From: a virus
Taxonomy: Duplodnaviria; Heunggongvirae; Uroviricota; Caudoviricetes
Length of the DNA stretch: 64,000 bases
IMG/VR virus record: IMGVR_UViG_2721755676_000001
Reading direction: 5' to 3' (one strand)
This document shows, piece after piece, positions 23,872 through 34,245 of the stretch. Position numbers and translations under genes: made by a program. Under the pieces are notes generated by a model. It saw nothing but the letters and a program-made list of their open reading frames with translations, searched no databases and had not been told where the DNA came from. Within the stretch, counting starts at the first letter, position 1. Each line of letters starts with the position of its first letter.

Positions 23872-26800
23872 ATGTGGTACAGGGAAGGTACTATCACATT
23901 TACACAGGGCAGCAATACTCTGGTTGGGGCAGGGACAGCCTGGAACGTAACAGCTAATGGTGTGTTGCCGGGGATGATCGTCATTGGCCCCGACAATAAG
24001 CTGTATGAGATCAAGCGCGTAACCAGTGATACGAACATTGTTCTCTCAGAACCTTATACCGGCGAAACTCAGTCTGAAGTTCCGTGCCGAATCATTACGA
24101 CCTATGAAGGCGACTTAACACAGTTTAGCGCGCGCTTTACTGCGCTAATGTCGCGTATGTCGGCTGATTCCAAGTCCATACGCAGTTGGTTGACTGCGCT
24201 GGATGAGGTGACAATCGAGCGTGAAGACGGTACAGAAGTGACCGTTAAGCCGCTAATGCAGATCGCCAACGAGCACAACGAAAACGTTGAGTGGTATAAA
24301 AATAACACTGACGCGATTGATGCTGCTGGCGACAAAGCTCGTGAGGCGGCGGCCAGTGCTGCCGCAGCAGCAAAAAGCGCCAATGCCGCTGGAGAAAAAG
24401 CCTCTCAAGCGTCTCAAAGTGCATCCGCTGCGGCATCCTCACAAAGTGCCGCAAGTGCGAGTGCAACTGCTGCGAAAAAATCTGAAACGAATGCTGCAGC
24501 GTCACAAAAATCTGCAGCCACTTCTGCATCCACCGCGACCACGAAGGCGTCAGAAGCTGCCACCTCAGCCCGGGATGCGGCGGCCTCAAAAGAGGCAGCG
24601 AAATCATCAGAAACGAACGCATCCTCAAGCGCCAGTAGTGCCGCTTCCTCGGCAACGGCGGCAGGAAATTCCGCGAAGGCGGCAAAAACGTCCGAGACGA
24701 ACGCCAGGTCTTCTGAAACGGCAGCGGGACAGAGCGCCTCAGCTGCGGCAGGCTCAAAAACAGCGGCTGCGTCGTCTGCCAGTGCCGCGTCAACAAGTGC
24801 CGGGCAGGCCTCAGCCAGTGCCACCGCCGCCGGAAAATCGGCAGAAAGTGCCGCATCGTCTGCTTCAACAGCCACAACGAAGGCTGGCGAAGCCACTGAA
24901 CAGGCCAGCGCAGCAGCGAGGTCTGCTTCCGCAGCGAAGACATCCGAAACGAACGCGAAAGCGTCGGAAACCAGCGCAGAATCCTCAAAAACGGCTGCCG
25001 CATCGTCCGCCAGTTCGGCGGCGTCATCGGCATCATCGGCGTCTGCTTCAAAAGATGAGGCGACCAGACAGGCGTCAGCAGCGAAGGGCAGCGCCACGAC
25101 GGCATCCACGAAAGCAACAGAGGCGGCAGGCAGTGCGACGGCAGCATCTCAGAGCAAAACTGCTGCTGAATCCGCTGCGACTCGTGCGGAAGCTGCTGCT
25201 GATCGTGCTGAAGAGATTGCCGGTGCAGTTGCGATGGAAGACGCAAGCCTTACAACTAAAGGTGTTGTGAAACTTAGCAGTGCTGTCGACAGCACCAGTG
25301 AATCGCTGGCCGCAACGCCAAAAGCAGTTAAAGCAGCCAATGACAATGCGAATAGCAGGGTGCCATCTAACCGAAAAGTTAACGGTAAAGCACTGACTGC
25401 GGATATCAAATTAACGCCGAAAGATATTGGTACTTTAAATTCAGTAACGATGTCTTTCTCTGGCGGGGCAGGGTGGTTCAAACTGGCTACGGTTACCATG
25501 CCACAAGCGAGTTCCATCGTTTACATCGCATTGATTGGTGGCGCTGGTTACAACGTCGGCTCCCCACATCAGGCAGGCATTTCAGAACTGGTTCTACGAG
25601 CAGGCAATGGAAACCCCAAAGGGATTACAGGTGCTTTGTGGAAGCGTACAGCTGTCGGATTAACGAATTTCGCCTGGATCAACACATCCGGCGATACATA
25701 TGATATTTACGTTGAGATTGGCAATTATGCGACTCGTGTAAATATCCATTGGGATTGTACTGCAAATGCGACAGTTTCTATTTATACCTCGCCAACATAT
25801 TCAGCGAGTAAGCCTTCCAGCGTTACCGATGGTGTTGTTTATACGATGTATAGCACACATCAGAAACCGACGCCGTTAGATATTGGAGCACTGCCAACAA
25901 CCGGAGGAACAGTTTCAGGTCCGTTGTCTGTTACAGGTGGATTAACTGGTTCATTGAATGGTAATGCAAGTACAGCCACGAAATTGCAGACGGCAAGATC
26001 TATCGGTGGAGTTGTTTTCGACGGTTCTGCAAATATTAACCTTCCAGGTGTAAACACTACGGGTAATCAGAACACCACTGGTAATGCTGCAACTGCTACA
26101 AAACTTCAGACTGCAAGAAAAATATCCGGTGTTCCATTTGATGGTTCTACTGATATCACTTTAACCGCTGCGCATGTTGCCGCTTTCGCAAGAAGGGCAA
26201 CAGGGTCATATGCGGATGCTGATGGTGGCGTGCCGTGGAATGCTGAATCTGGTGCTTACAATGTAACTAGAACAGGCGACAGTTATATTCTTGCCAACTT
26301 TTATACCGGTGTAGGTAGTTGCCGGACCCTGCAGATGAAGGCGCATTACAGAAATGGAGGTCTGTTCTACCGTTCCTCAAGAGATGGCTATGGTTTTGAA
26401 AGTGGTTGGGAGCAGGTTTACACGACTGGATTTATGCCTCAGCCGGCTGATATAAACGCGCCAACCGCTGCCGCTGGATGGTTAAATAGTGGTAACGGAA
26501 CGGCATTTACGACTGCTCAATTTATAACTTGGCTAAATAATCAGGGGGCATTTACAAACAAACATTGGATCGCACGGTGCTCATGGGCTTACGCCAACAA
26601 TAATTATATAGACGACACTGGTTGCGGTAGGATCGATCTATCTGGTTCCGTGATTGAGGTGTTTAGTAATAAGGCAACAAGCCACTACACTATTCGTGTT
26701 ACAACGACAACAACATCGGGTCATGGTGGTGTTAACAATGCGGAATTTATTTATGTGTACAATGGAAGTGATTATGCACCAGGCTGGCGTCGTTCTTATA

Positions 26801-28170
26801 ACACTAGAAACAAACCAACAGCTTCTGATGTAGGAGCATTATCGCTTTCTGGAGGAGCGTTAACTGGCGGATTAACTGCTGCTGGCGAGATTATTTCAAA
26901 ATCGGCGAATGGTCTGCGCATTGCCTACGGAAACTACGGATTCTTTATCCGAAACGATGGTTCAAGCACATACTTCATGTTGACCGATTCGGGTAACAGC
27001 CTGGGAACCTATAATAGTTTAAGGCCGCTTATCATTAACAATGCCAATGGTGCTGTTAGGATCGGTAATGGACTCAATGTTACTGGCGGCATCAATGGTA
27101 GTTTGAACGGTAATGCTTCAACAGCTACGAAGTTGCAAACAGCGAGAAACATCAATGGTGTTAAGTTTGATGGTTCAGGCGATATCAACATTAATACATT
27201 GGTATCTCGTGGCCGAGTTACGGCGTTAAGCGGCTCTACTCAAGGCACTGCTGGCATTCAAATGTATGAGGCGTACAACAATAGCTACCCGACCACGTAT
27301 GGCAACGTATTGCACATGAAAGGTGCGAGTGCTGCTGGTGAGGGCGAGTTGCTTATTGGCTGGAGTGGTACGAGCGGTGCACATGCGCCAGTTTTCATTC
27401 GCTCACGAAGAGATAACACAGGTGCAGCATGGTCAGCGTGGGCGCAGGTATATACCGCTAAGGATTCAATCCCTGGTGTGAATACAACTGGTAATCAGAA
27501 CACTACTGGTAATGCCGCAACCGCCACAAAATTGCAGACAGCAAGGAAAATTGCTGGTGTGGCGTTTGATGGCTCTGCCGATATAACTTTGACTGCGGCT
27601 AACCTTAATGCTTACACGAAAACAGAGGTAGCAAACCTTCTAAGCTCCTATGCAAGCAGATCATCACTGACAGGCTATAGTGGCAACCTGGATATTGTTG
27701 CTGAAACACTGGTTGTCAAATCAGGCGGTAGTGGAGGGTTTGCTATATGGGATATTGGCACAACTACTAGCGGTGCCAATATGTACATTGATCCAAACCC
27801 AGGTATCAATACAGTTTGGCGTTCAACGTCTTCAAGGCGCTATAAAAAGGATATTGAAACATTACAAGATCGATATGCTGATGAACTTTTGTCATTAAGA
27901 CCTGTTTGGTATCGTTCAATTTGTCGAGGTGACCGAAAGGATTGGGGGTATTACGGCCTTATTGCTGAAGAGGTTGGTGAGATTGCCCCGCAATATGTCC
28001 ATTGGCGTGAACCAACAAATAATGATTCTCCAGAAGATATTTCCTCAAATGGTATGGTCGCTGAAGGAGTGATGTATGAGCGTTTGGTTGTACCACTCAT
28101 TCATCATATTCAGCAATTGACCAAAAGGGTTGAGGAGCTTGAAACGAAGTTAAATTCACCTAAAGAATAA
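23872..28170 (+). CDS. side tail fibre protein (Stf-like) with C-terminal intramolecular chaperone (peptidase S74-like) domain
   Basis: Long Ala/Ser/Thr-rich segment (ASEAATSARDAAASKEAAKSSETNASSSA...) as in lambdoid Stf; repeated NTTGNQNTTGNAATATKLQTARKI modules; C-terminal SSRRYKKDIETL..GYYGLIAEEV; AAGGAG RBS. Confidence 0.85.
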   Translation: MWYREGTITFTQGSNTLVGAGTAWNVTANGVLPGMIVIGPDNKLYEIKRVTSDTNIVLSEPYTGETQSEVPCRIITTYEGDLTQFSARFTALMSRMSADSKSIRSWLTALDEVTIEREDGTEVTVKPLMQIANEHNENVEWYKNNTDAIDAAGDKAREAAASAAAAAKSANAAGEKASQASQSASAAASSQSAASASATAAKKSETNAAASQKSAATSASTATTKASEAATSARDAAASKEAAKSSETNASSSASSAASSATAAGNSAKAAKTSETNARSSETAAGQSASAAAGSKTAAASSASAASTSAGQASASATAAGKSAESAASSASTATTKAGEATEQASAAARSASAAKTSETNAKASETSAESSKTAAASSASSAASSASSASASKDEATRQASAAKGSATTASTKATEAAGSATAASQSKTAAESAATRAEAAADRAEEIAGAVAMEDASLTTKGVVKLSSAVDSTSESLAATPKAVKAANDNANSRVPSNRKVNGKALTADIKLTPKDIGTLNSVTMSFSGGAGWFKLATVTMPQASSIVYIALIGGAGYNVGSPHQAGISELVLRAGNGNPKGITGALWKRTAVGLTNFAWINTSGDTYDIYVEIGNYATRVNIHWDCTANATVSIYTSPTYSASKPSSVTDGVVYTMYSTHQKPTPLDIGALPTTGGTVSGPLSVTGGLTGSLNGNASTATKLQTARSIGGVVFDGSANINLPGVNTTGNQNTTGNAATATKLQTARKISGVPFDGSTDITLTAAHVAAFARRATGSYADADGGVPWNAESGAYNVTRTGDSYILANFYTGVGSCRTLQMKAHYRNGGLFYRSSRDGYGFESGWEQVYTTGFMPQPADINAPTAAAGWLNSGNGTAFTTAQFITWLNNQGAFTNKHWIARCSWAYANNNYIDDTGCGRIDLSGSVIEVFSNKATSHYTIRVTTTTTSGHGGVNNAEFIYVYNGSDYAPGWRRSYNTRNKPTASDVGALSLSGGALTGGLTAAGEIISKSANGLRIAYGNYGFFIRNDGSSTYFMLTDSGNSLGTYNSLRPLIINNANGAVRIGNGLNVTGGINGSLNGNASTATKLQTARNINGVKFDGSGDININTLVSRGRVTALSGSTQGTAGIQMYEAYNNSYPTTYGNVLHMKGASAAGEGELLIGWSGTSGAHAPVFIRSRRDNTGAAWSAWAQVYTAKDSIPGVNTTGNQNTTGNAATATKLQTARKIAGVAFDGSADITLTAANLNAYTKTEVANLLSSYASRSSLTGYSGNLDIVAETLVVKSGGSGGFAIWDIGTTTSGANMYIDPNPGINTVWRSTSSRRYKKDIETLQDRYADELLSLRPVWYRSICRGDRKDWGYYGLIAEEVGEIAPQYVHWREPTNNDSPEDISSNGMVAEGVMYERLVVPLIHHIQQLTKRVEELETKLNSPKE

Positions 28171-28230: not shown

Positions 28231-28485
28231 ATGAGCTATGGTGCACAGGTTTGGTCGCCATCAAGACAGGAGATGGTCAATGCGTTGGCCCCTGTTTATT
28301 ACCTCGATTATTTTACTCCCTCTGGTTCAGGAAGTAGAACATATGAGGTTGAGGCGGGATTGGGAATCGACTATTACATAATGGACGTAACCAATGGAAA
28401 GTACACAAGTCTTACGGTTTCTGGAAATACCATTTCGTGGTCTGGAGCTAGTGGTAATTTAAACATATTGGTTTTTCAAAAATAA
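28231..28485 (+). CDS. hypothetical protein (AT-rich cargo gene)
   Basis: ORF with AAGGA RBS; visibly lower GC than flanking structural genes. Confidence 0.5.
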   Translation: MSYGAQVWSPSRQEMVNALAPVYYLDYFTPSGSGSRTYEVEAGLGIDYYIMDVTNGKYTSLTVSGNTISWSGASGNLNILVFQK

Positions 28486-29093
28486 TGTACGGAAGCAAGA
28501 TATATCGATCTGACGGGAAGGTCTGGATGTCTCCTTCTTTGTCTCCTATCGTTTTTCAGAGAAAGCAGGTTGTTTCTTTGTCCGGCGGGACAGAGTTTAA
28601 CACCAAAATATCTCCAGATCGTTCACCGATTATTTTTGTTGCCTATTCGAAAGCTGTTTCATTAATAGCCAACAGAATAGTGCGTAACAACCAGGTGATT
28701 TACAGTTTCGGAGGTCGGGGTAGCGACTCTAGTGCCACGATATACGTATTTTCGAAAGGTATAGCCAAAAAAGAAACTTGGGGCATGAGTTTTTTCAATG
28801 CACAAGGGGGGGAAATCTATAATACGGCAAATATCCCACTTTCATTTACCTTTCTTAATAATACGGAGTGGAACAGCTCTGGAGGGCATGTTTTTGATTA
28901 CCCTCCAGCGATAATCCCAACATATGCGAATGTGTTCGCTGTTCCAGTACCGGGCGGAGCCATGACAATGGTTTATGGATATGCGGCGTATGGAAATACT
29001 GTTAGCTCGATATTCGTAAACCAACTTAATGGCGGCCATAGTTTTAGCGTAAATGGCAGAGTACCGGTAATAAATAGAAATCTGTATAACTGA
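28485..29093 (+). CDS. hypothetical protein (AT-rich cargo gene)
   Basis: ORF start overlaps upstream stop (TAATG). Confidence 0.5.
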   Translation: MYGSKIYRSDGKVWMSPSLSPIVFQRKQVVSLSGGTEFNTKISPDRSPIIFVAYSKAVSLIANRIVRNNQVIYSFGGRGSDSSATIYVFSKGIAKKETWGMSFFNAQGGEIYNTANIPLSFTFLNNTEWNSSGGHVFDYPPAIIPTYANVFAVPVPGGAMTMVYGYAAYGNTVSSIFVNQLNGGHSFSVNGRVPVINRNLYN

Positions 29094-29100
29094 TGAGTAA

Positions 29101-29334
29101 ATGATGAAAAGATTATTTCTAACAATAGCTGTTGTTCTCTCTCTTACTGGCTGCCAGAAATTGCCGACACCTATATGTTATGGTGAAGCTATCATTGGTG
29201 GACAGGAGACAGTCATACCCATATATGCTGTTAAAAAAGTGAACGACTATACCTTATACAAAGCGGGTAGCATCTATAACTGGCGATGGGTTGGAGTAGG
29301 TGCTTTCTCATCAATCGGTTGCAATGCTGAATGA
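29101..29334 (+). CDS. small lipoprotein (candidate Cor/Llp-like superinfection-exclusion protein)
   Basis: Signal peptide with lipobox LSLTGC; 77 aa; located directly after tail fibre genes. Confidence 0.5.
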   Translation: MMKRLFLTIAVVLSLTGCQKLPTPICYGEAIIGGQETVIPIYAVKKVNDYTLYKAGSIYNWRWVGVGAFSSIGCNAE

Positions 29335-29354
29335 TAGGTAAGTACACACCTACA
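29334..29354 (+). promoter_or_regulatory. junction motif GATAGGTAAGTACACACCTAC
   Basis: Read directly; ~50 nt upstream of lysis cassette. Confidence 0.35.
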
Positions 29355-29403
29355 ACAAAAGGGTGAAATGTGATATAAATCCGCCATCCCGATTTGACTT
29401 TTC

Positions 29404-29739
29404 ATGGAGGAAAACATGTCGAACGAGATGGCGGGCGTTACAACAGAGCAAGTTGAGCGTATTGCCGCGATCGTTGCTCGGGAGGTTGTTGGCAAATTAG
29501 GTAAAGAGCTACGTGAAGAAATTGGCCAGGAGGTCAATGATCAGCTGAAAACCTACTTTGGTGATATGACCCCGGCGCAACATAGTATTCAACACTCCAA
29601 TCTGGACAAACTCCTTAACCGGTTAGATTCCATCTCAAGTGGGTTCTTTGGCGGCATTGTTTCTAAAATAACGTCGTTCATTATTACCGCACTGCTTTTG
29701 GGGTTAGCCGCGTATGGCGTAAAAAGTGGACTGCAATAA
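29404..29739 (+). CDS. membrane protein, putative holin (single C-terminal TM helix)
   Basis: GGAGG RBS; hydrophobic ITSFIITALLLGLAAYGV; first gene of lysis-like cassette; assignment by position. Confidence 0.4.
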   Translation: MEENMSNEMAGVTTEQVERIAAIVAREVVGKLGKELREEIGQEVNDQLKTYFGDMTPAQHSIQHSNLDKLLNRLDSISSGFFGGIVSKITSFIITALLLGLAAYGVKSGLQ

Positions 29740-29752
29740 CAGGAGATCAAGG

Positions 29753-30445
29753 ATGAAGACTCCGAGAGGCATTCGTAATAATAACCCCGGTAATCTTGAT
29801 AAAGGATCACCGTGGCAAGGTCTGGTTGCGAATCCAGACGAACCGCGCTTTTGCACGTTTAAAGACCCTGTTTGGGGGATTCGTGCGCTGGCGGTGACTC
29901 TAATTACCTACCACGATAAACGTCGCGCAAAAGACGGCTCAAGTATCGATACCATTCGTGAAGTTATTGAACGCTGGGCACCGCCGAATGAAAACAATAC
30001 TGACGCCTACATTAATGAGGTGTCTAAAGCCGTTGGTGTAACCGCAGACATGATCATCGATCTGCATGATTACGACATCCTTCGACCTTTGGTTGAGGCA
30101 ATCATTCGCCACGAGAATGGCCGAGGCCCGCTAAAAACGCTGAACACCTGGTATGCGGCAGAAGTTATTGAGGAAGGTCTGCGTCGAGCTGGCGTTGTTA
30201 AGCCGGTGAAAACCGTGAAGGCTGTTCCTGTAACTAAAGAAACCGCAGGCGCAACTGTTACAGCAGGTATTGGTCTGGCGCAGCTGGCCGATGTTATGCC
30301 GCAGGTTTCCGCTGCTATGGATAAAGCACAAGGTCATATCTCTAGCGGGGATACAGTACGCATCATCTTCGGTATTGCCACTATTGTTGTGGCAGGATTC
30401 ATTGCCTGGTCGCAGGTAAGAAAACACCAGAAAGGGATGGTCTAA
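29753..30445 (+). CDS. putative endolysin / cell-wall-active protein with C-terminal membrane anchor (family not recognised)
   Basis: ATG 29753 with CAGGAG RBS; conserved-looking N-terminal GIRNNNPGNL block; C-terminal TM IIFGIATIVVAGFIAW; sits between holin-like and spanin genes. Confidence 0.4.
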   Translation: MKTPRGIRNNNPGNLDKGSPWQGLVANPDEPRFCTFKDPVWGIRALAVTLITYHDKRRAKDGSSIDTIREVIERWAPPNENNTDAYINEVSKAVGVTADMIIDLHDYDILRPLVEAIIRHENGRGPLKTLNTWYAAEVIEEGLRRAGVVKPVKTVKAVPVTKETAGATVTAGIGLAQLADVMPQVSAAMDKAQGHISSGDTVRIIFGIATIVVAGFIAWSQVRKHQKGMV

Positions 30446-30446
30446 T

Positions 30447-30698
30447 ATGCTAGGCAGCCTGATGACAAAGCTAAAAGTTGCTTTGATTACGCTGGCTGCC
30501 GTTCTTTTCGTTCTGGTCGGCGCTTACACGATGGGCGGAAATGCGGCGCGACGAGCAATGGAAGAGAAGGCAAAACAGGAAGACAGGAAACGACTTCAAA
30601 GCACAGTGGATGTCAAAAATGAAACGGTTAATGAAGTGCGGCAAAAAGATGCCTCTGGTGTTCATCGCGAGCTGTTTGATAAATGGGTGCGTGATTAA
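30447..30698 (+). CDS. i-spanin (Rz-like), N-terminal TM plus charged helical periplasmic part
   Basis: N-terminal TM VALITLAAVLFVLVGAY followed by charged region; o-spanin-like lipoprotein ORF overlaps in another frame. Confidence 0.6.
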   Translation: MLGSLMTKLKVALITLAAVLFVLVGAYTMGGNAARRAMEEKAKQEDRKRLQSTVDVKNETVNEVRQKDASGVHRELFDKWVRD

Positions 30699-30846
30699 GA
30701 CGCAGGCTCCAGGCGTGCTATTCTGCGATGCTGCAAATCCTATCTATGTGAGTAGAGAGGATTTTATGACTGAGGAAACGGAGCGACAGTTGCTTATCCA
30801 CAATACGATAGGTGAAAGGCTGTGTGAGTGGGGGCACCTGAACTGA
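30619..30846 (+). CDS. o-spanin (Rz1-like lipoprotein), overlapped architecture
   Basis: Starts inside i-spanin in the +1 frame and extends beyond it; MKRLMKCGKKMPLVFIASCLINGC has signal peptide and lipobox-like NGC; start codon uncertain (30610/30619/30631). Confidence 0.45.
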   Translation: MKRLMKCGKKMPLVFIASCLINGCVIKTQAPGVLFCDAANPIYVSREDFMTEETERQLLIHNTIGERLCEWGHLN

Positions 30847-31070
30847 GTCGATGATTGATGAGTGGTCTCAGTTTACCTTTTATCCTAAAGATGGCATCTT
30901 CACTCATATACACGCCTGTTCACTCAAGCTCATGTTGAATCATTTAGTAATTTGATGTAGATTTATTAGGCATCCACGTAAGTGGGCACATACAGGCTAC
31001 GCATCCTCGTAGCCTTCAACCCCGAGAGGGGTGCCGCAATGACACTTGTGTTAACGGCTAAGGTGGATAT

Positions 31071-31490
31071 ATGCTAAATTATCATGACAATACGCGTTCT
31101 ATGCAGACGATCCGCACCAATACTGCGGTCATCGACAGCTTTCCTATGCGTATTCACAACAGTGAAGACGCAGTAGAAGTGCGACGTATGTTGTGCCGTG
31201 AATCAGCTAACCGCCAGCACTTCATCGTCACTTTTAAGAGCGATGTGGCGCGTGCCGAAAAGATCTCTAATTCTACGTCACTGGTTAAACCGTTGGCCGA
31301 GGTTGTCGCTAACGGTAAACGAACCTCTTTTGTTTTAGATGTTGCTGAACAATATCCTGACTTGAAGTGTTTAGATCGTGATATTTCTTCACGAATCAAA
31401 CAAGTTGTAGAGTCTTTTATGAAGAAATTCTGTAAAATCGATGATATGGAACCATCAACGGCACAGAATACTTCATGGCACCATCTCTAA
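31071..31490 (+). CDS. hypothetical protein (first gene of two-gene cargo operon)
   Basis: AAGGTGGA RBS; preceded by 220-bp AT-rich non-coding region. Confidence 0.5.
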   Translation: MLNYHDNTRSMQTIRTNTAVIDSFPMRIHNSEDAVEVRRMLCRESANRQHFIVTFKSDVARAEKISNSTSLVKPLAEVVANGKRTSFVLDVAEQYPDLKCLDRDISSRIKQVVESFMKKFCKIDDMEPSTAQNTSWHHL

Positions 31491-32248
31491 TTGGTCAGGC
31501 GAACAGATTAATCCCTGAAATAGAAGACTACAGCAAGGTCTTGTCTGAAATGCCGAGAGCGACGAGAATTATCGCTCTCGGTGAGTTCTATTTTATCTCC
31601 CGAGGTTTCGATCTAATTCGATTTACCGAATACGAGCTTGTTGATTCGGCCTATGAACGCTGTATTGTTGGCGAGTGTCTTGAGTCATGTGATCCTGATT
31701 ACCAAGAGCAGGAAGTTAAGCGACTCAAACGTGCTGGTTACACACCTCTTGAGATAGGAGCAGAAATTGAATCCTACAAGTTGCATGTGGGGCAGCCAGT
31801 CCAAACAGTCTTCCGCGTGGCCTACTGCGAGTTTCCAATCAAGGATAAATCTGGAGTAAAAGTCAGCGCCAAGCAGATTAGAGGGGTTTTTACTCATGCT
31901 GATTATATGGGATTAGGCATCGCAAGTTTTGCTTACCTTTATCTCGTAGATAAGTATCAGTACTTGGTTTGCGATACGTTACAGACGGTAAAAGGCGCAA
32001 CTCTTTGGGCTGTGAGTATGCGCAAACATGGACTGGTCGAAATTTACGATACGAAGAACGAAAATTTTATAGAGGAATTGGGTGAGGATGCCTGTGGCGT
32101 AAGTGGTTTTATTCCGTGGGATATCGGTAAGTCTGACGGAGGCCAGATGCGAAGACGTGAAGAGTGGGGGACTAATAAAATCAATCTCACCCCAGGTGCT
32201 TGTACTCATATAGTGAACATTCTGACTAAACGATCTATGAATCAATAA
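31475..32248 (+). CDS. hypothetical protein, possible GNAT-like fold
   Basis: Overlaps upstream gene by 16 nt; segment IRGVFTHADYMGLGIASFAYLYLV weakly GNAT-like; followed by intrinsic terminator. Confidence 0.45.
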   Translation: MAPSLIGQANRLIPEIEDYSKVLSEMPRATRIIALGEFYFISRGFDLIRFTEYELVDSAYERCIVGECLESCDPDYQEQEVKRLKRAGYTPLEIGAEIESYKLHVGQPVQTVFRVAYCEFPIKDKSGVKVSAKQIRGVFTHADYMGLGIASFAYLYLVDKYQYLVCDTLQTVKGATLWAVSMRKHGLVEIYDTKNENFIEELGEDACGVSGFIPWDIGKSDGGQMRRREEWGTNKINLTPGACTHIVNILTKRSMNQ

Positions 32249-32249
32249 A

Positions 32250-32269
32250 CCCGCTACGGCGGGTTTTTT
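32250..32269 (+). terminator. intrinsic terminator (CCCGC-TACG-GCGGG + TTTTTT)
   Basis: GC stem plus 6-T run immediately after stop at 32248. Confidence 0.7.
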
Positions 32270-32397: not shown

Positions 32398-33066
32398 ATG
32401 ACCAAGATCTTTGTGGTTGGCGGCACAAAGGGCGGGCCTGGCAAATCCACCGTTGCCCAGCAAATTGCCGTTTGCCTGAAAGTCAAAAAGAAGAAGAAGG
32501 TTTATATTACCGATATAGATATTCAGCGCACGACAACGAGCTGGTGTGAAGACCGTCGACAGAACGAAGACCTTGAGCTGATTCCTTTTGCATACGTTCA
32601 GGATGACATCATTAAGCACCTAAAATCGCTTCAGGGTAGAGCTGAGTTTGTAGTGGTAGATGCTGGTGGCTTCGACTCCGAAATTCAGCGACAAGCGATG
32701 CTGATGGCTGACGTTATCATTATCCCGCTGCGTCCTAAGCGTCGTGATTTGAAATCTTTACGTGACATCGATCCTATTATCGACAATGTTCGCAATGTAA
32801 ACGATAAAGTGAAGGTCCGCGCGGTCATGAACCAGTGCCCGGCTTTGCCATCACAAGTGTCTCGCATTCTGGCGGCTAAAGAGATTGTTGAGACGTTTGG
32901 AATCGAGTCTGCGCCAGTCAATCTATATAACCGCAACGTCTATGATGATGCGGAAGAGTCTGGTCGTTCTATCTTTGAAATGACCGGTAGCGAGCGCGAC
33001 AAAAAGGCGGAAGCCGAGTTTGAAGAATTTGTAGATTATCTGTTGAGTCTGGAGGAAGAAGAATAA
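32398..33066 (+). CDS. ParA/MinD-family partition ATPase (small type Ib-like)
   Basis: Deviant Walker A GGTKGGPGKST at N-terminus; 222 aa without N-terminal HTH; AAAGGGA RBS. Confidence 0.8.
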   Translation: MTKIFVVGGTKGGPGKSTVAQQIAVCLKVKKKKKVYITDIDIQRTTTSWCEDRRQNEDLELIPFAYVQDDIIKHLKSLQGRAEFVVVDAGGFDSEIQRQAMLMADVIIIPLRPKRRDLKSLRDIDPIIDNVRNVNDKVKVRAVMNQCPALPSQVSRILAAKEIVETFGIESAPVNLYNRNVYDDAEESGRSIFEMTGSERDKKAEAEFEEFVDYLLSLEEEE

Positions 33067-33425
33067 TGTCCATGAAAATGGGTGACCTAGCAAAGCGCAA
33101 AGAGCCTGATGCACCGGCTAAGAACACAACTCCTTTGCGCCAACCAGTCAGACCACAGGGACGCCCGACTCGTGGCAAAGAGAAAATTAAAAGCCGCACA
33201 ATGTCACTGGAGGACGAATACTTCGAACTGCTGGAGATGATGAAGTTCATCCCTCGCTTCGAGAAGTTCACTCGTTCTGACGTGATTCGAGCAGCCATTT
33301 TCCATCTGGCAGAGAAGTCACCGCAGGAAATCGAGGACATCGTGAAATTGAATGAGGCGATCACCGCTGCCGATGTCACGATGCGTACCGATGAAATCAA
33401 ACGAGAGTTGATGAAGAAAGGTTAA
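33066..33425 (+). CDS. small ParA partner protein (putative ParG/ParB-like centromere-binding protein)
   Basis: 119-aa basic protein translationally coupled (TAATG) to the ParA-like gene; role inferred from synteny. Confidence 0.45.
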   Translation: MSMKMGDLAKRKEPDAPAKNTTPLRQPVRPQGRPTRGKEKIKSRTMSLEDEYFELLEMMKFIPRFEKFTRSDVIRAAIFHLAEKSPQEIEDIVKLNEAITAADVTMRTDEIKRELMKKG

Positions 33426-33477: not shown

Positions 33478-34245
33478 TTATGCCGCGCTAACACTATGTT
33501 CAGTCCTAACCACCCCAACCTTCACAAAAGGGCTACCGTAGCTTGGTGGCTTCTTGATTAATTTGCCTACATACAGTTTTCTAATATGCTCATCGGCTAT
33601 TCTGCCAACAAATTCATAACGTTTTGTGTCGGGGCCAAGAGCTATATCCCTTGTAAAGTACTGCTGAGAACCGGCTTTGACCCAGCATTCAATCTGATAA
33701 ACTTCCATTATCAGCCCACCATATGTAGCGTAGGCATATTTGAGATTCTCGTCTCTTGGAACCTTTGCCCATACGCCACGCGTAGCTTCATATAATGCCA
33801 GAGCGGACATTCCTGACTTGTAGGTGCTGTTTAGCAGGAAGGCAAGACCGGCGTGCTCAGGAGCAATTTCAGTTTCCTCTTGCAGCACTAAGTGATGGTA
33901 GGCGTCCAGTGATATTCTGCCCATCATGGAACCACTTCCTCGTACCTTATTCGTAAGCTCTCCGACCCCCATAAGGTCGATGCATGTCGCCTCAACAAGT
34001 TTGGCTGTGGTTTCATCCATACCATGACGAAGTATATCTATGCCTAATTTTTTATTAGCCAAAAGTTCTTTGATCCGCATGGATTTGGGAGAGTCATCGG
34101 GATACTTGATGTGATCGAGACAACGAGTCGATTTGCCTTTTCCTATGTAAAACGGTCTTTTCATCTTGTCTTCTGTATCATAGAGACAGTAAACATAGTA
34201 TTTAGCCTTATCCAATGATCTCGCGTATACCGATAAATCGTCCAT
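33478..34245 (-). CDS. GIY-YIG domain endonuclease (homing-endonuclease-like)
   Basis: N-terminal YYVYCLYD...PFYIGKGK matches GIY-x10-YIG; lone minus-strand gene among plus-strand genes. Confidence 0.75.
   Translation of the reverse strand: MDDLSVYARSLDKAKYYVYCLYDTEDKMKRPFYIGKGKSTRCLDHIKYPDDSPKSMRIKELLANKKLGIDILRHGMDETTAKLVEATCIDLMGVGELTNKVRGSGSMMGRISLDAYHHLVLQEETEIAPEHAGLAFLLNSTYKSGMSALALYEATRGVWAKVPRDENLKYAYATYGGLIMEVYQIECWVKAGSQQYFTRDIALGPDTKRYEFVGRIADEHIRKLYVGKLIKKPPSYGSPFVKVGVVRTEHSVSAA

Follow-up and report, generated by a model that had tools for sequence, protein, structure and literature searches.

How an enzyme devoid of a signal sequence and carrying a C-terminal membrane helix reaches the cell wall is the question posed by the Enc34-type family of phage endolysins, and it is raised again by the lysis genes encoded in a stretch of DNA from a tailed virus (Caudoviricetes; IMG/VR record IMGVR_UViG_2721755676_000001). 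The whole stretch analysed, referred to as the window, is 64,000 nucleotides long. By its matches the cassette in question represents the late host-lysis genes of an SSU5-like phage-plasmid of E. coli and comprises four open reading frames (ORFs), all on the + strand within 29404-30846, as a preliminary description of this DNA had placed them. In the best explanation that can be offered at present, to which we give a probability of about 0.5, a C-terminal module of the endolysin would form the membrane lesion and the product of the preceding gene (gene 1), commonly labelled as a holin, would be its timing partner.

The region 29000-31500, a query of 2.5 kb, is 100% identical to plasmid CP142588.1 of E. 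coli, 98-99% identical to many further non-mobilizable plasmids of ~105-127 kb, 95% identical to Escherichia phage Cyrano and 83% identical to Salmonella phage SSU5. The cassette is present in 397 plasmid records, chiefly of Escherichia, Enterobacter and Salmonella. In clinical Enterobacteriaceae, phage-plasmids of the SSU5 type are frequent and bear resistance genes. In gene order the four proteins match phrog_5093, phrog_873, phrog_1026 and phrog_1275 (Table 1), and the same genes are labelled Holin, Endolysin, Rz spanin and Rz1 spanin in the SSU5 and Cyrano records. Since all four proteins match phage families and the cassette recurs in 397 plasmid records, it stands far beyond chance. The order membrane protein, endolysin, inner-membrane spanin (i-spanin) and outer-membrane spanin (o-spanin) proposed in the preliminary description is thus borne out by the family matches and by these annotations, while Pfam and NCBIfam searches with the four proteins gave nothing over threshold. 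The components had also been called atypical, which is correct in comparison with lambda; they are not new, as the enzyme family has been published and the SSU5-type cassette is annotated in public records. The enzyme and both spanins are of already described kinds, and gene 1 is the only component without the status of a studied family.

Gene 1 encodes a protein of 111 residues from ATG 29404 or of 107 residues from ATG 29416. The second start is the likelier, because a GGAGG Shine-Dalgarno sequence lies 5 nt before it and the SSU5 and Cyrano records annotate that start; the two in-frame ATGs possibly constitute a dual-start arrangement. The protein consists of a helical charged N-terminal part with the conserved motif YFGDMTPAQHSIQH, one C-terminal transmembrane (TM) helix and a tail of 8 residues (YGVKSGLQ, net +1; the mean in its family is 9.5 residues). 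Its single hydrophobic segment near the C-terminus, recognised already in the preliminary description, has a Kyte-Doolittle (KD) 19-residue maximum of 2.02 at residues 85-103 of the 111-residue form. The AlphaFold2 (AF2) model is all-helical and of low confidence, with a predicted local distance difference test score (pLDDT) of 45.7. The sole family match of the protein is phrog_5093, listed under 'unknown function' in PHROGs, and the label 'holin' in the SSU5 and Cyrano records rests on position only.

A profile search of 1.84 billion representatives (E<=1e-3) has identified 54 proteins of the phrog_5093 type, and all of the 27 members scanned match that family. Once aligned, these 27, with lengths of 94-143 residues, show an N-terminal part that is helical, charged and variable, followed by a single TM helix and by a tail of 4-14 residues; they share the motif (Y/H)FG(D/E)M(T/S)PxxHxxQHxR(L/I)(D/E)..L...D..S.NFWG, in which G49, H56 and H60 are invariant. 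They have no consistent Pfam match and no relative in the PDB. Two distant members compared by tblastn with 50,697 cultured-phage records revealed only SSU5-like elements, so that in these records no characterised phage carries phrog_5093. A scan of IMG/VR with the closer alignment retrieved mostly near-identical SSU5-like contigs, and scans with alignments of distant members added two viral loci and one metagenome locus.

Contigs encoding distant members of the family, representing about 12 lineages, were surveyed for the genes around them. In every contig examined the phrog_5093 gene is the first gene of the lysis cluster. In very divergent contigs, and with all kinds of other neighbours, it always adjoins an endolysin or a holin gene, and often the stop codon of one overlaps the start codon of the next. 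At least four unrelated types of endolysin accompany these members, as expected for a membrane protein that controls lysis. They include endolysins with a Peptidase_M15_3 domain (beside members P0032, P0040 and P0041), an Amidase_2 domain (P0066) and a GH108 domain combined with PG_binding_3 (P0051). An endolysin of phrog_669 with an N-terminal hydrophobic segment is found beside P0036, a transglycosylase-like endolysin with an N-terminal hydrophobic segment resembling a signal or a signal-anchor-release (SAR) sequence beside P0059, and an Enc34-like protein beside P0033.

A second small membrane protein is encoded in every phrog_5093 cassette that has enough flanking sequence, except the SSU5-like cassettes and that of P0033. 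Directly after P0036 follows a 3-TM holin of phrog_8226 (E=4e-10), and directly after P0059 a protein of the Pfam family Holin_2-3. In three lineages a 2-TM protein with the motif IGPxNxxIxxWFxER is encoded 3' of the endolysin; these proteins have weak matches to phrog_6637 and belong to no Pfam family. In the remaining cassettes another protein with 1-2 TM helices serves as the second membrane element. The SSU5-like and P0033 cassettes are the only ones in which a separate second membrane protein is missing, and there the endolysin itself carries a membrane module. Both the order phrog_5093 gene, second membrane protein, endolysin and the order phrog_5093 gene, endolysin, second membrane protein recur. 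These patterns of context speak more for a partner protein than for a holin sufficient by itself. The proteins with the IGPxNxxIxxWFxER motif (L005:4791-5066, L012:3800-4057 and L096:4285-4503) are in their own right candidates for an uncharacterised holin family.

In the window itself the other small TM ORFs were considered as second holin candidates, and all of them lie more than 10 kb from the cassette; the other reading frames of the cassette contain no hidden TM ORF. Besides the i-spanin, the only other inner-membrane element here is the module carried by the endolysin.

The endolysin (gene 2), whose start codon lies 13 nt past the stop codon of gene 1 and is preceded by AGGAG at a distance of 7 nt, combines an enzymatic domain at the N-terminus (about residues 1-151) with a conserved membrane module at the C-terminus (about residues 156-230). 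The profile comparison with hydrolase families that the preliminary description had proposed is clearly positive: apart from the match to phrog_873 'endolysin', a phmmer search matches residues 3-151 to PDB 7Q47, the Enc34 endolysin's catalytic domain (E=2.6e-54). An AF2 model built on 30 homologues, with a pLDDT of about 81-96 over residues 21-150, has 7Q47 as its only significant PDB match in Foldseek (E=4.6e-16, TM-score 0.80, 60% identity). Over its full length the protein is 56% identical to Chi gp38. The GIRNNNPGNL block pointed out at first reading has been located at residues 6-15, with G6, R8, N11, P12, G13 and N14 invariant in the 30 homologues; Enc34 and PDB 9vvp Gp29 contain the block as well. 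It had further been stated that no lysozyme or amidase catalytic motif could be recognised in this protein. This is true as far as Pfam and NCBIfam go, and their giving no match explains why none was seen. The catalytic residues of the Enc34 type are nevertheless present: W75 (in RWAPP) corresponds to Trp79 of Enc34, Y86 (in AY) to Tyr95 and E121 (in RHENG) to Glu131, and all three are invariant in the 30 homologues. In Enc34, Glu131 is catalytic and Trp79 and Tyr95 are residues of the groove (PMC8943055). The blank in Pfam and NCBIfam is a gap in the libraries and not evidence against enzymatic function. By homology, gene 2 belongs to the Enc34/M4Lys endolysin family (PHA02564 catalytic domain) and is predicted to act as a peptidoglycan glycosidase of the same type.

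The crystallised domain of Enc34 is muralytic on outer-membrane-permeabilised cells of E. coli, Pseudomonas aeruginosa and Hafnia alvei, and full-length Enc34 ORF39 is toxic (PMC8943055). M4Lys of phage BSPM4 removes N-acetylglucosamine from muropeptides, and the full-length protein alone lyses E. coli; lysis is not blocked by azide and is abolished by truncation of the transmembrane domain (TMD) (PMC7143992). The upstream gene ORF_37 is dispensable and causes a slight delay of lysis, for which its authors suggest expression levels as a possible cause (PMC7143992). For work on enzybiotics, the window provides one further natural variant of the Enc34-type catalytic domain.

The same catalytic domain is common in virion-associated proteins found by tblastn, such as internal virion proteins of T7-like phages and proteins of D3112-like Pseudomonas phages and NO16-like vibriophages. 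In chain L of PDB 9vvp (Gp29, 1295 residues) the GIRNNNPGN catalytic domain occupies the N-terminus (E=5.6e-22). This structure and the many tblastn matches to internal virion, tape-measure and ejection proteins show that outside the Chi and SSU5 clades the domain is mainly a virion-associated lysin.

The C-terminal membrane module is made up of a PVTKET linker, a weakly hydrophobic stretch rich in Gly, Ala and Thr, an amphipathic helix, an SSGD turn, a TM helix and the basic tail RKHQKGMV. The membrane anchor noted in the preliminary description corresponds to the one strong C-terminal TM segment (KD 2.07, residues 204-222), and in the AF2 model the amphipathic and TM helices extend over residues 175-194 and 200-226, the pLDDT being low over residues 157-201. 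In the first 190 residues no hydrophobic window exceeds 1.2, and gene 2 is therefore without a signal or SAR sequence. Among the 30 homologues, which are 56-90% identical overall, P159, T161, E163, A167, G174, Q177, P183, A188, S198, G207, A218 and Q221 of the module are invariant. Judged from this conservation, the C-terminal part is more than a generic anchor. The TMD is needed for lysis or toxicity in M4Lys and Enc34 ORF39 (PMC7143992, PMC8943055), and in Aeromonas phage BUCT551 and a Pasteurella prophage module-bearing endolysins of the Enc34 type stand without a single-TM gene beside them. LysAP of Acidovorax phage AP1, a GH24 lysozyme, lyses alone in a TMD-dependent manner (PMC8879335), and its last ~75 residues (L105:1129-1812, OM049504) are collinear with the module (hhalign probability 75%, E=2.5e-5). 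This alignment hints at a module that can be transferred between catalytic domains of unrelated kinds.

An unusual Enc34-like protein of 231 residues is encoded downstream of P0033 (L098:3368-4063, a Logan SRR30563942 contig). All three groove residues are replaced in this protein (RWAPP by EYRNLG, AY by RQ and RHENG by VMYNG) and the module is intact, with PLTKES, SSGDW, the TM helix and KKRKNG. Going by these substitutions, the enzyme domain of this protein may have lost catalysis while its membrane module still functions.

The endolysin has in common with Enc34 ORF39, M4Lys and Chi gp38 the catalytic domain (about 60% identity to 7Q47), the GIRNNNPGN block, the Trp, Tyr and Glu residues of the groove, the conserved C-terminal module and the position ahead of an overlapped spanin pair. 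The cassette differs from the studied ones of Chi, Enc34 and BSPM4 in its host element, which is a phage-plasmid of roughly 110 kb here and a Chi-like siphovirus there, and in its first gene, which is non-homologous and of inverted membrane orientation: in Chi gp37, Enc34 ORF38 and BSPM4 ORF_37 a coiled-coil domain follows an N-terminal TM helix, and these proteins are unrelated to gene 1. The architecture has been described as limited to Chivirus and some related viruses, in a main text that makes no mention of SSU5 (PMC8943055). Like the SAR endolysins (R21 with S21 of phage 21, Lyz of P1), gene 2 encodes a predicted membrane-tethered muralytic enzyme with a weakly hydrophobic stretch rich in Gly, Ala and Thr, and its homologues lyse when overexpressed alone. 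Its hydrophobic element, unlike that of SAR endolysins, stands at the C-terminus instead of the N-terminus, which excludes a signal-anchor that would export the enzyme domain in a Sec-dependent manner. Phage AP1 offers a similar arrangement, with an endolysin of ~227 residues whose C-terminal TMD is needed for autonomous lysis and which is preceded by a single-TM 'holin' of 111 residues. It differs in the catalytic domain of LysAP and in HolAP, a Holin_2-3 protein with a central TM helix that is unrelated to phrog_5093; no spanins were found in AP1.

Outside these cassettes, gene 1 most resembles XhlA of PBSX and gp24.1 of SPP1, which in Bacillus phages form the C-terminal-TM half of two-component holins. 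Both are likewise small and helical in their N-terminal part, carry their only TM helix at the very C-terminus, and possess dual in-frame starts. As with distant phrog_5093 members, they come first in the cassette with a second membrane component alongside. They are harmless alone and become lethal together with the 2-TM holins XhlB and gp26, and the Bacillus gene orders xhlA-xhlB-xlyA in PBSX and 24.1-25-26 in SPP1 (PMC6316719, PMC5589764) are the counterparts of the two orders found in phrog_5093 cassettes. In contrast to XhlA and gp24.1, phrog_5093 belongs to Gram-negative hosts, the second component here is a module fused to the endolysin, and the FGDMTPxQHxxQH motif has no counterpart in XhlA.

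In the mechanism that we propose, the C-terminal module of the endolysin would itself be a holin-like membrane-lesion element by which the enzyme reaches the cell wall, as in M4Lys, Enc34 ORF39 and LysAP. Gene 1 would then not be a self-sufficient holin; it would be a tail-anchored partner whose N-terminal helical domain is cytoplasmic and whose C-terminal helix spans the membrane, acting on the membrane element of the endolysin and setting the time of lysis much as XhlA and gp24.1 do with 2-TM XhlB and gp26. Such a partner might either trigger lysis or delay it. We infer the role of a holin partner because distant members stand first in their cassettes and, wherever the flanking sequence suffices, are accompanied by a second membrane element, and the pairing of an XhlA/gp24.1-like partner with the module of the endolysin itself is drawn by analogy. 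The preliminary description had taken gene 1 as a holin candidate; its position agrees with this, and the context of its relatives suggests a partner or regulator and not a holin sufficient by itself.

Several points weigh against the proposed mechanism. No sequence homology to XhlA was found for gene 1 and 26 relatives (no PF10779 match; hhalign probability 1.1%), whereas SPP1 gp24.1 itself matches PF10779 (3.9e-14); the comparison is therefore one of analogy and gene 1 is not a member of PF10779. The charges give no clear topology, the short tail being net +1 and the N-terminal flank about neutral. The first genes of Chi, Enc34 and BSPM4 are unrelated and of opposite topology, so that the results with ORF_37 are not directly transferable. 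Holin-independent lysis by M4Lys and Enc34 ORF39 has been seen only under overexpression, and a C-terminal TM helix offers no obvious route into the periplasm for an enzyme domain at the N-terminus. As to the context survey, it covers only about 12 lineages, and several of the second membrane proteins are uncharacterised (weak phrog_6637 matches or no match), of which some could be spanins or unrelated proteins.

A different explanation, less probable in our estimate and yet to be taken seriously, takes gene 1, in line with its label in SSU5 and Cyrano, for a holin or pinholin of the conventional kind that is sufficient by itself. It would accumulate in the inner membrane until a set time, when holes or depolarisation would release or activate the tethered endolysin in a SAR-like manner, the TM helix of the latter being an anchor only. 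The canonical position directly upstream of the endolysin, the small one-TM protein with two in-frame starts and the occurrence of phrog_5093 ahead of at least four unrelated endolysin types, a classic signature of holins, all agree with this. The authors of the Enc34 study speculate that the first gene of their cassette is a pinholin releasing the tethered enzyme (PMC8943055), and co-expression of HolAP enhanced lysis by LysAP in AP1 (PMC8879335). The hydrophilic, highly charged C-terminal domain that typically follows the last TM helix of holins is, however, absent from gene 1 with its 8-residue tail of +1, and searches of Pfam, NCBIfam and PHROGs place it in no described holin family. A recognised holin adjoins phrog_5093 in two lineages and other small TM proteins do so elsewhere, which would be redundant if the family were self-sufficient, and endolysins homologous to gene 2 lyse without a holin and occur without a partner gene.

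That gene 1 acts solely as an inhibitor, keeping the otherwise autonomous endolysin module inactive until late infection like the brake of an antiholin, appears improbable. M4Lys lysis is slightly slower when the upstream gene is co-expressed, though that gene is unrelated and, according to the authors, the delay is possibly an effect of expression level (PMC7143992). The endolysin family is toxic alone, which calls for strict control in a phage-plasmid during its persistence as a plasmid. The N-terminal cytoplasmic domain with its two invariant His residues could be a sensor. On the other side, a scan for promoters and terminators gave no signal within the cassette or just ahead of it; with genes 1 and 2 apparently co-transcribed late, a brake is not obviously needed in lysogeny, and the best-studied analogues, XhlA and gp24.1, are activators required for lysis (PMC6316719). 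It is very improbable that gene 1 has no part in lysis and is, for example, a moron or superinfection-exclusion protein, with the cassette proper starting at the endolysin. The three genes preceding it do code for small moron-like proteins of the envelope (phrog_557, phrog_425 and Cor) and PHROGs gives phrog_5093 no function, but the family is joined to endolysin or holin genes in very divergent contigs whatever surrounds it, which already disfavours this possibility.

Returning to gene 1 as a partner of the endolysin module, the co-occurrence of phrog_5093 and a second membrane protein beside many endolysin types makes a two-component arrangement that can be tested; if true, it corrects the annotation 'holin' and gives a handle on the problem of export. 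The partner role suggested by these comparisons is new but modest. A wider generalisation is offered only tentatively, and we consider it less probable than the mechanism for the cassette itself. According to it phrog_5093 would be a widespread and so far undescribed family whose members serve phages of Gram-negative bacteria as tail-anchored holin partners, functionally analogous to XhlA and gp24.1. The 'holin' of SSU5-like elements would be split between gene 1 and the portable module of the endolysin, which together move the signal-less enzyme across the inner membrane, and the invariant H-x3-H pair of the cytoplasmic domain would be a trigger or sensor.

Homology of gene 1 to other first genes of lysis cassettes has been rejected for Chi gp37 (blastp and hhalign negative), for SPP1 gp24.1 and XhlA (hhalign negative) and for AP1 HolAP, where blastp, the sole method used, was negative. 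Two proteins of 99 and 106 residues with a C-terminal TM helix are encoded directly upstream of Enc34-type endolysins at L103:2205-2504, in an Alcaligenaceae assembly, and L106:1684-2004, in a contig from a genome or metagenome assembly. Their motif GFPDxDPxSHRRYHES is in register with YFGDMTPxQHxxQH of phrog_5093 (F-x-D-x-x-P-x-x-H-x3-H). They are not counted as members of the family, their profile scores not being significant.

Table 1. Positions in the window of the lysis genes and of the sequence elements discussed in the text.
Feature	Coordinates	Strand	Basis
Gene 1, small tail-anchored membrane protein, phrog_5093	29404..29739	+	ORF, hydropathy, PHROG E=2e-68
GGAGG Shine-Dalgarno sequence, 5 nt upstream of ATG 29416	29406..29410	+	read from sequence
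Gene 2, Enc34/M4Lys-type endolysin, 230 aa	29753..30445	+	7Q47 homology, phrog_873 'endolysin' 3e-88
GIRNNNPGNL block (residues 6-15), enzymatic-domain signature	29768..29797	+	conservation
Glu121 GAG codon (RHENG), equivalent of Enc34 catalytic Glu131	30113..30115	+	alignment
C-terminal membrane module of the endolysin	30218..30442	+	hydropathy, AF2, conservation
Gene 3, i-spanin, 83 aa	30447..30698	+	phrog_1026 'Rz-like spanin' 5.7e-25
Gene 4, o-spanin lipoprotein, 71 aa (probable start)	30631..30846	+	phrog_1275 'Rz-like spanin' 2.3e-25
Lipobox L-I-N-G-C, Cys codon 30688-30690	30676..30690	+	alignment

Genes 3 and 4 encode by homology a two-component spanin of overlapped architecture, and the pair would bridge the periplasm and destroy the outer membrane after the murein is gone. 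The start codon of gene 3 lies 1 nt past the endolysin stop codon. The i-spanin has an N-terminal TM helix (about residues 9-29; KD 2.38 at 11-29) followed by a charged periplasmic domain of helical character, and is 26% identical to Chi gp39 (E=1e-4). For the o-spanin a mechanical ORF extends over 30541-30846 in the +1 frame relative to the i-spanin. Its probable start is ATG 30631 (alternative 30619), because both the phrog_1275 match and the SSU5_029 annotation begin at that Met. Its start thus falls within the i-spanin gene, in a different frame, and its end lies past that gene, as had been described, with an overlap of 68 nt (80 nt from 30619) and an extension of 148 nt past the i-spanin stop. 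The o-spanin and Chi gp40 share 47% identity (E=1e-17).

The predicted signal of the o-spanin up to the lipobox Cys is MKCGKKMPLVFIASCLING|C. The reading of INGC as a non-canonical lipobox is upheld by alignment. The Cys is invariant in 59 related IMG/VR loci, where it is preceded by ISG (45 loci), ING (10) or VSG (4), and INGC of the window aligns with VSGC of SSU5 and Chi. The Asn at position -2, in place of the Ser of ISGC in most relatives, is outside the consensus [LVI][ASTVI][GAS]C; LNGC is among the deviant lipoboxes of o-spanins on record (PMC6139136). An upstream IASC (Cys45 of the ORF) was rejected as the lipobox, since its Cys is replaced by Phe in 11 of the 59 relatives and is therefore not the lipidated residue.

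As in other overlapped two-component spanins (Kongari et al. 2018), a type-II inner-membrane protein is combined with an outer-membrane lipoprotein whose gene starts in the +1 frame inside the first. The SSU5 i-spanin has been classified as a singleton family of the overlapped class and the SSU5 o-spanin as a member of the Chi family, and periplasmic Cys residues for intermolecular disulfide bonds have been proposed as a potentially universal feature of spanins (Kongari et al. 2018). The mature o-spanin has two further Cys residues (C62 and C95, ORF numbering); the i-spanin here is short and has no periplasmic Cys, nor any other.

In Cyrano and SSU5 the tail-fibre gene and three small genes of envelope or moron type precede the cassette, and parA follows it. 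In the window the three small genes between tail fibre and cassette occupy 28231-29334 (+). They encode a phrog_557 'outer membrane protein' of 84 residues, a phrog_425 'membrane associated protein' of 202 residues and, as the third, a Cor-like superinfection-exclusion lipoprotein of 77 residues with the lipobox LTGC.

Downstream of the cassette, two overlapping ORFs of 139 and 257 residues without a Pfam match are found at 31071-32248 (+), with a strong terminator-like hairpin 3' of them at 32247-32266. The corresponding spot is occupied in Cyrano by a KacT toxin-antitoxin pair on the opposite strand and in SSU5 by two hypothetical genes. The region separating the lysis cassette from parA (32398-33066) thus has the look of a slot for variable accessory genes.

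A protein of 255 residues with a LEM-3-like GIY-YIG nuclease domain (PF22945, E=5.5e-7) is encoded at 33478-34245 (-), just beyond a 119-residue ORF (33066-33425) that follows parA, and on the opposite strand. The tail-fibre protein of 1432 residues encoded at 23872-28170 (+) contains a long low-complexity stretch rich in Ala, Ser and Thr, roughly at residues 150-470, which coincides with a GC peak of 0.534 at 24-26 kb.

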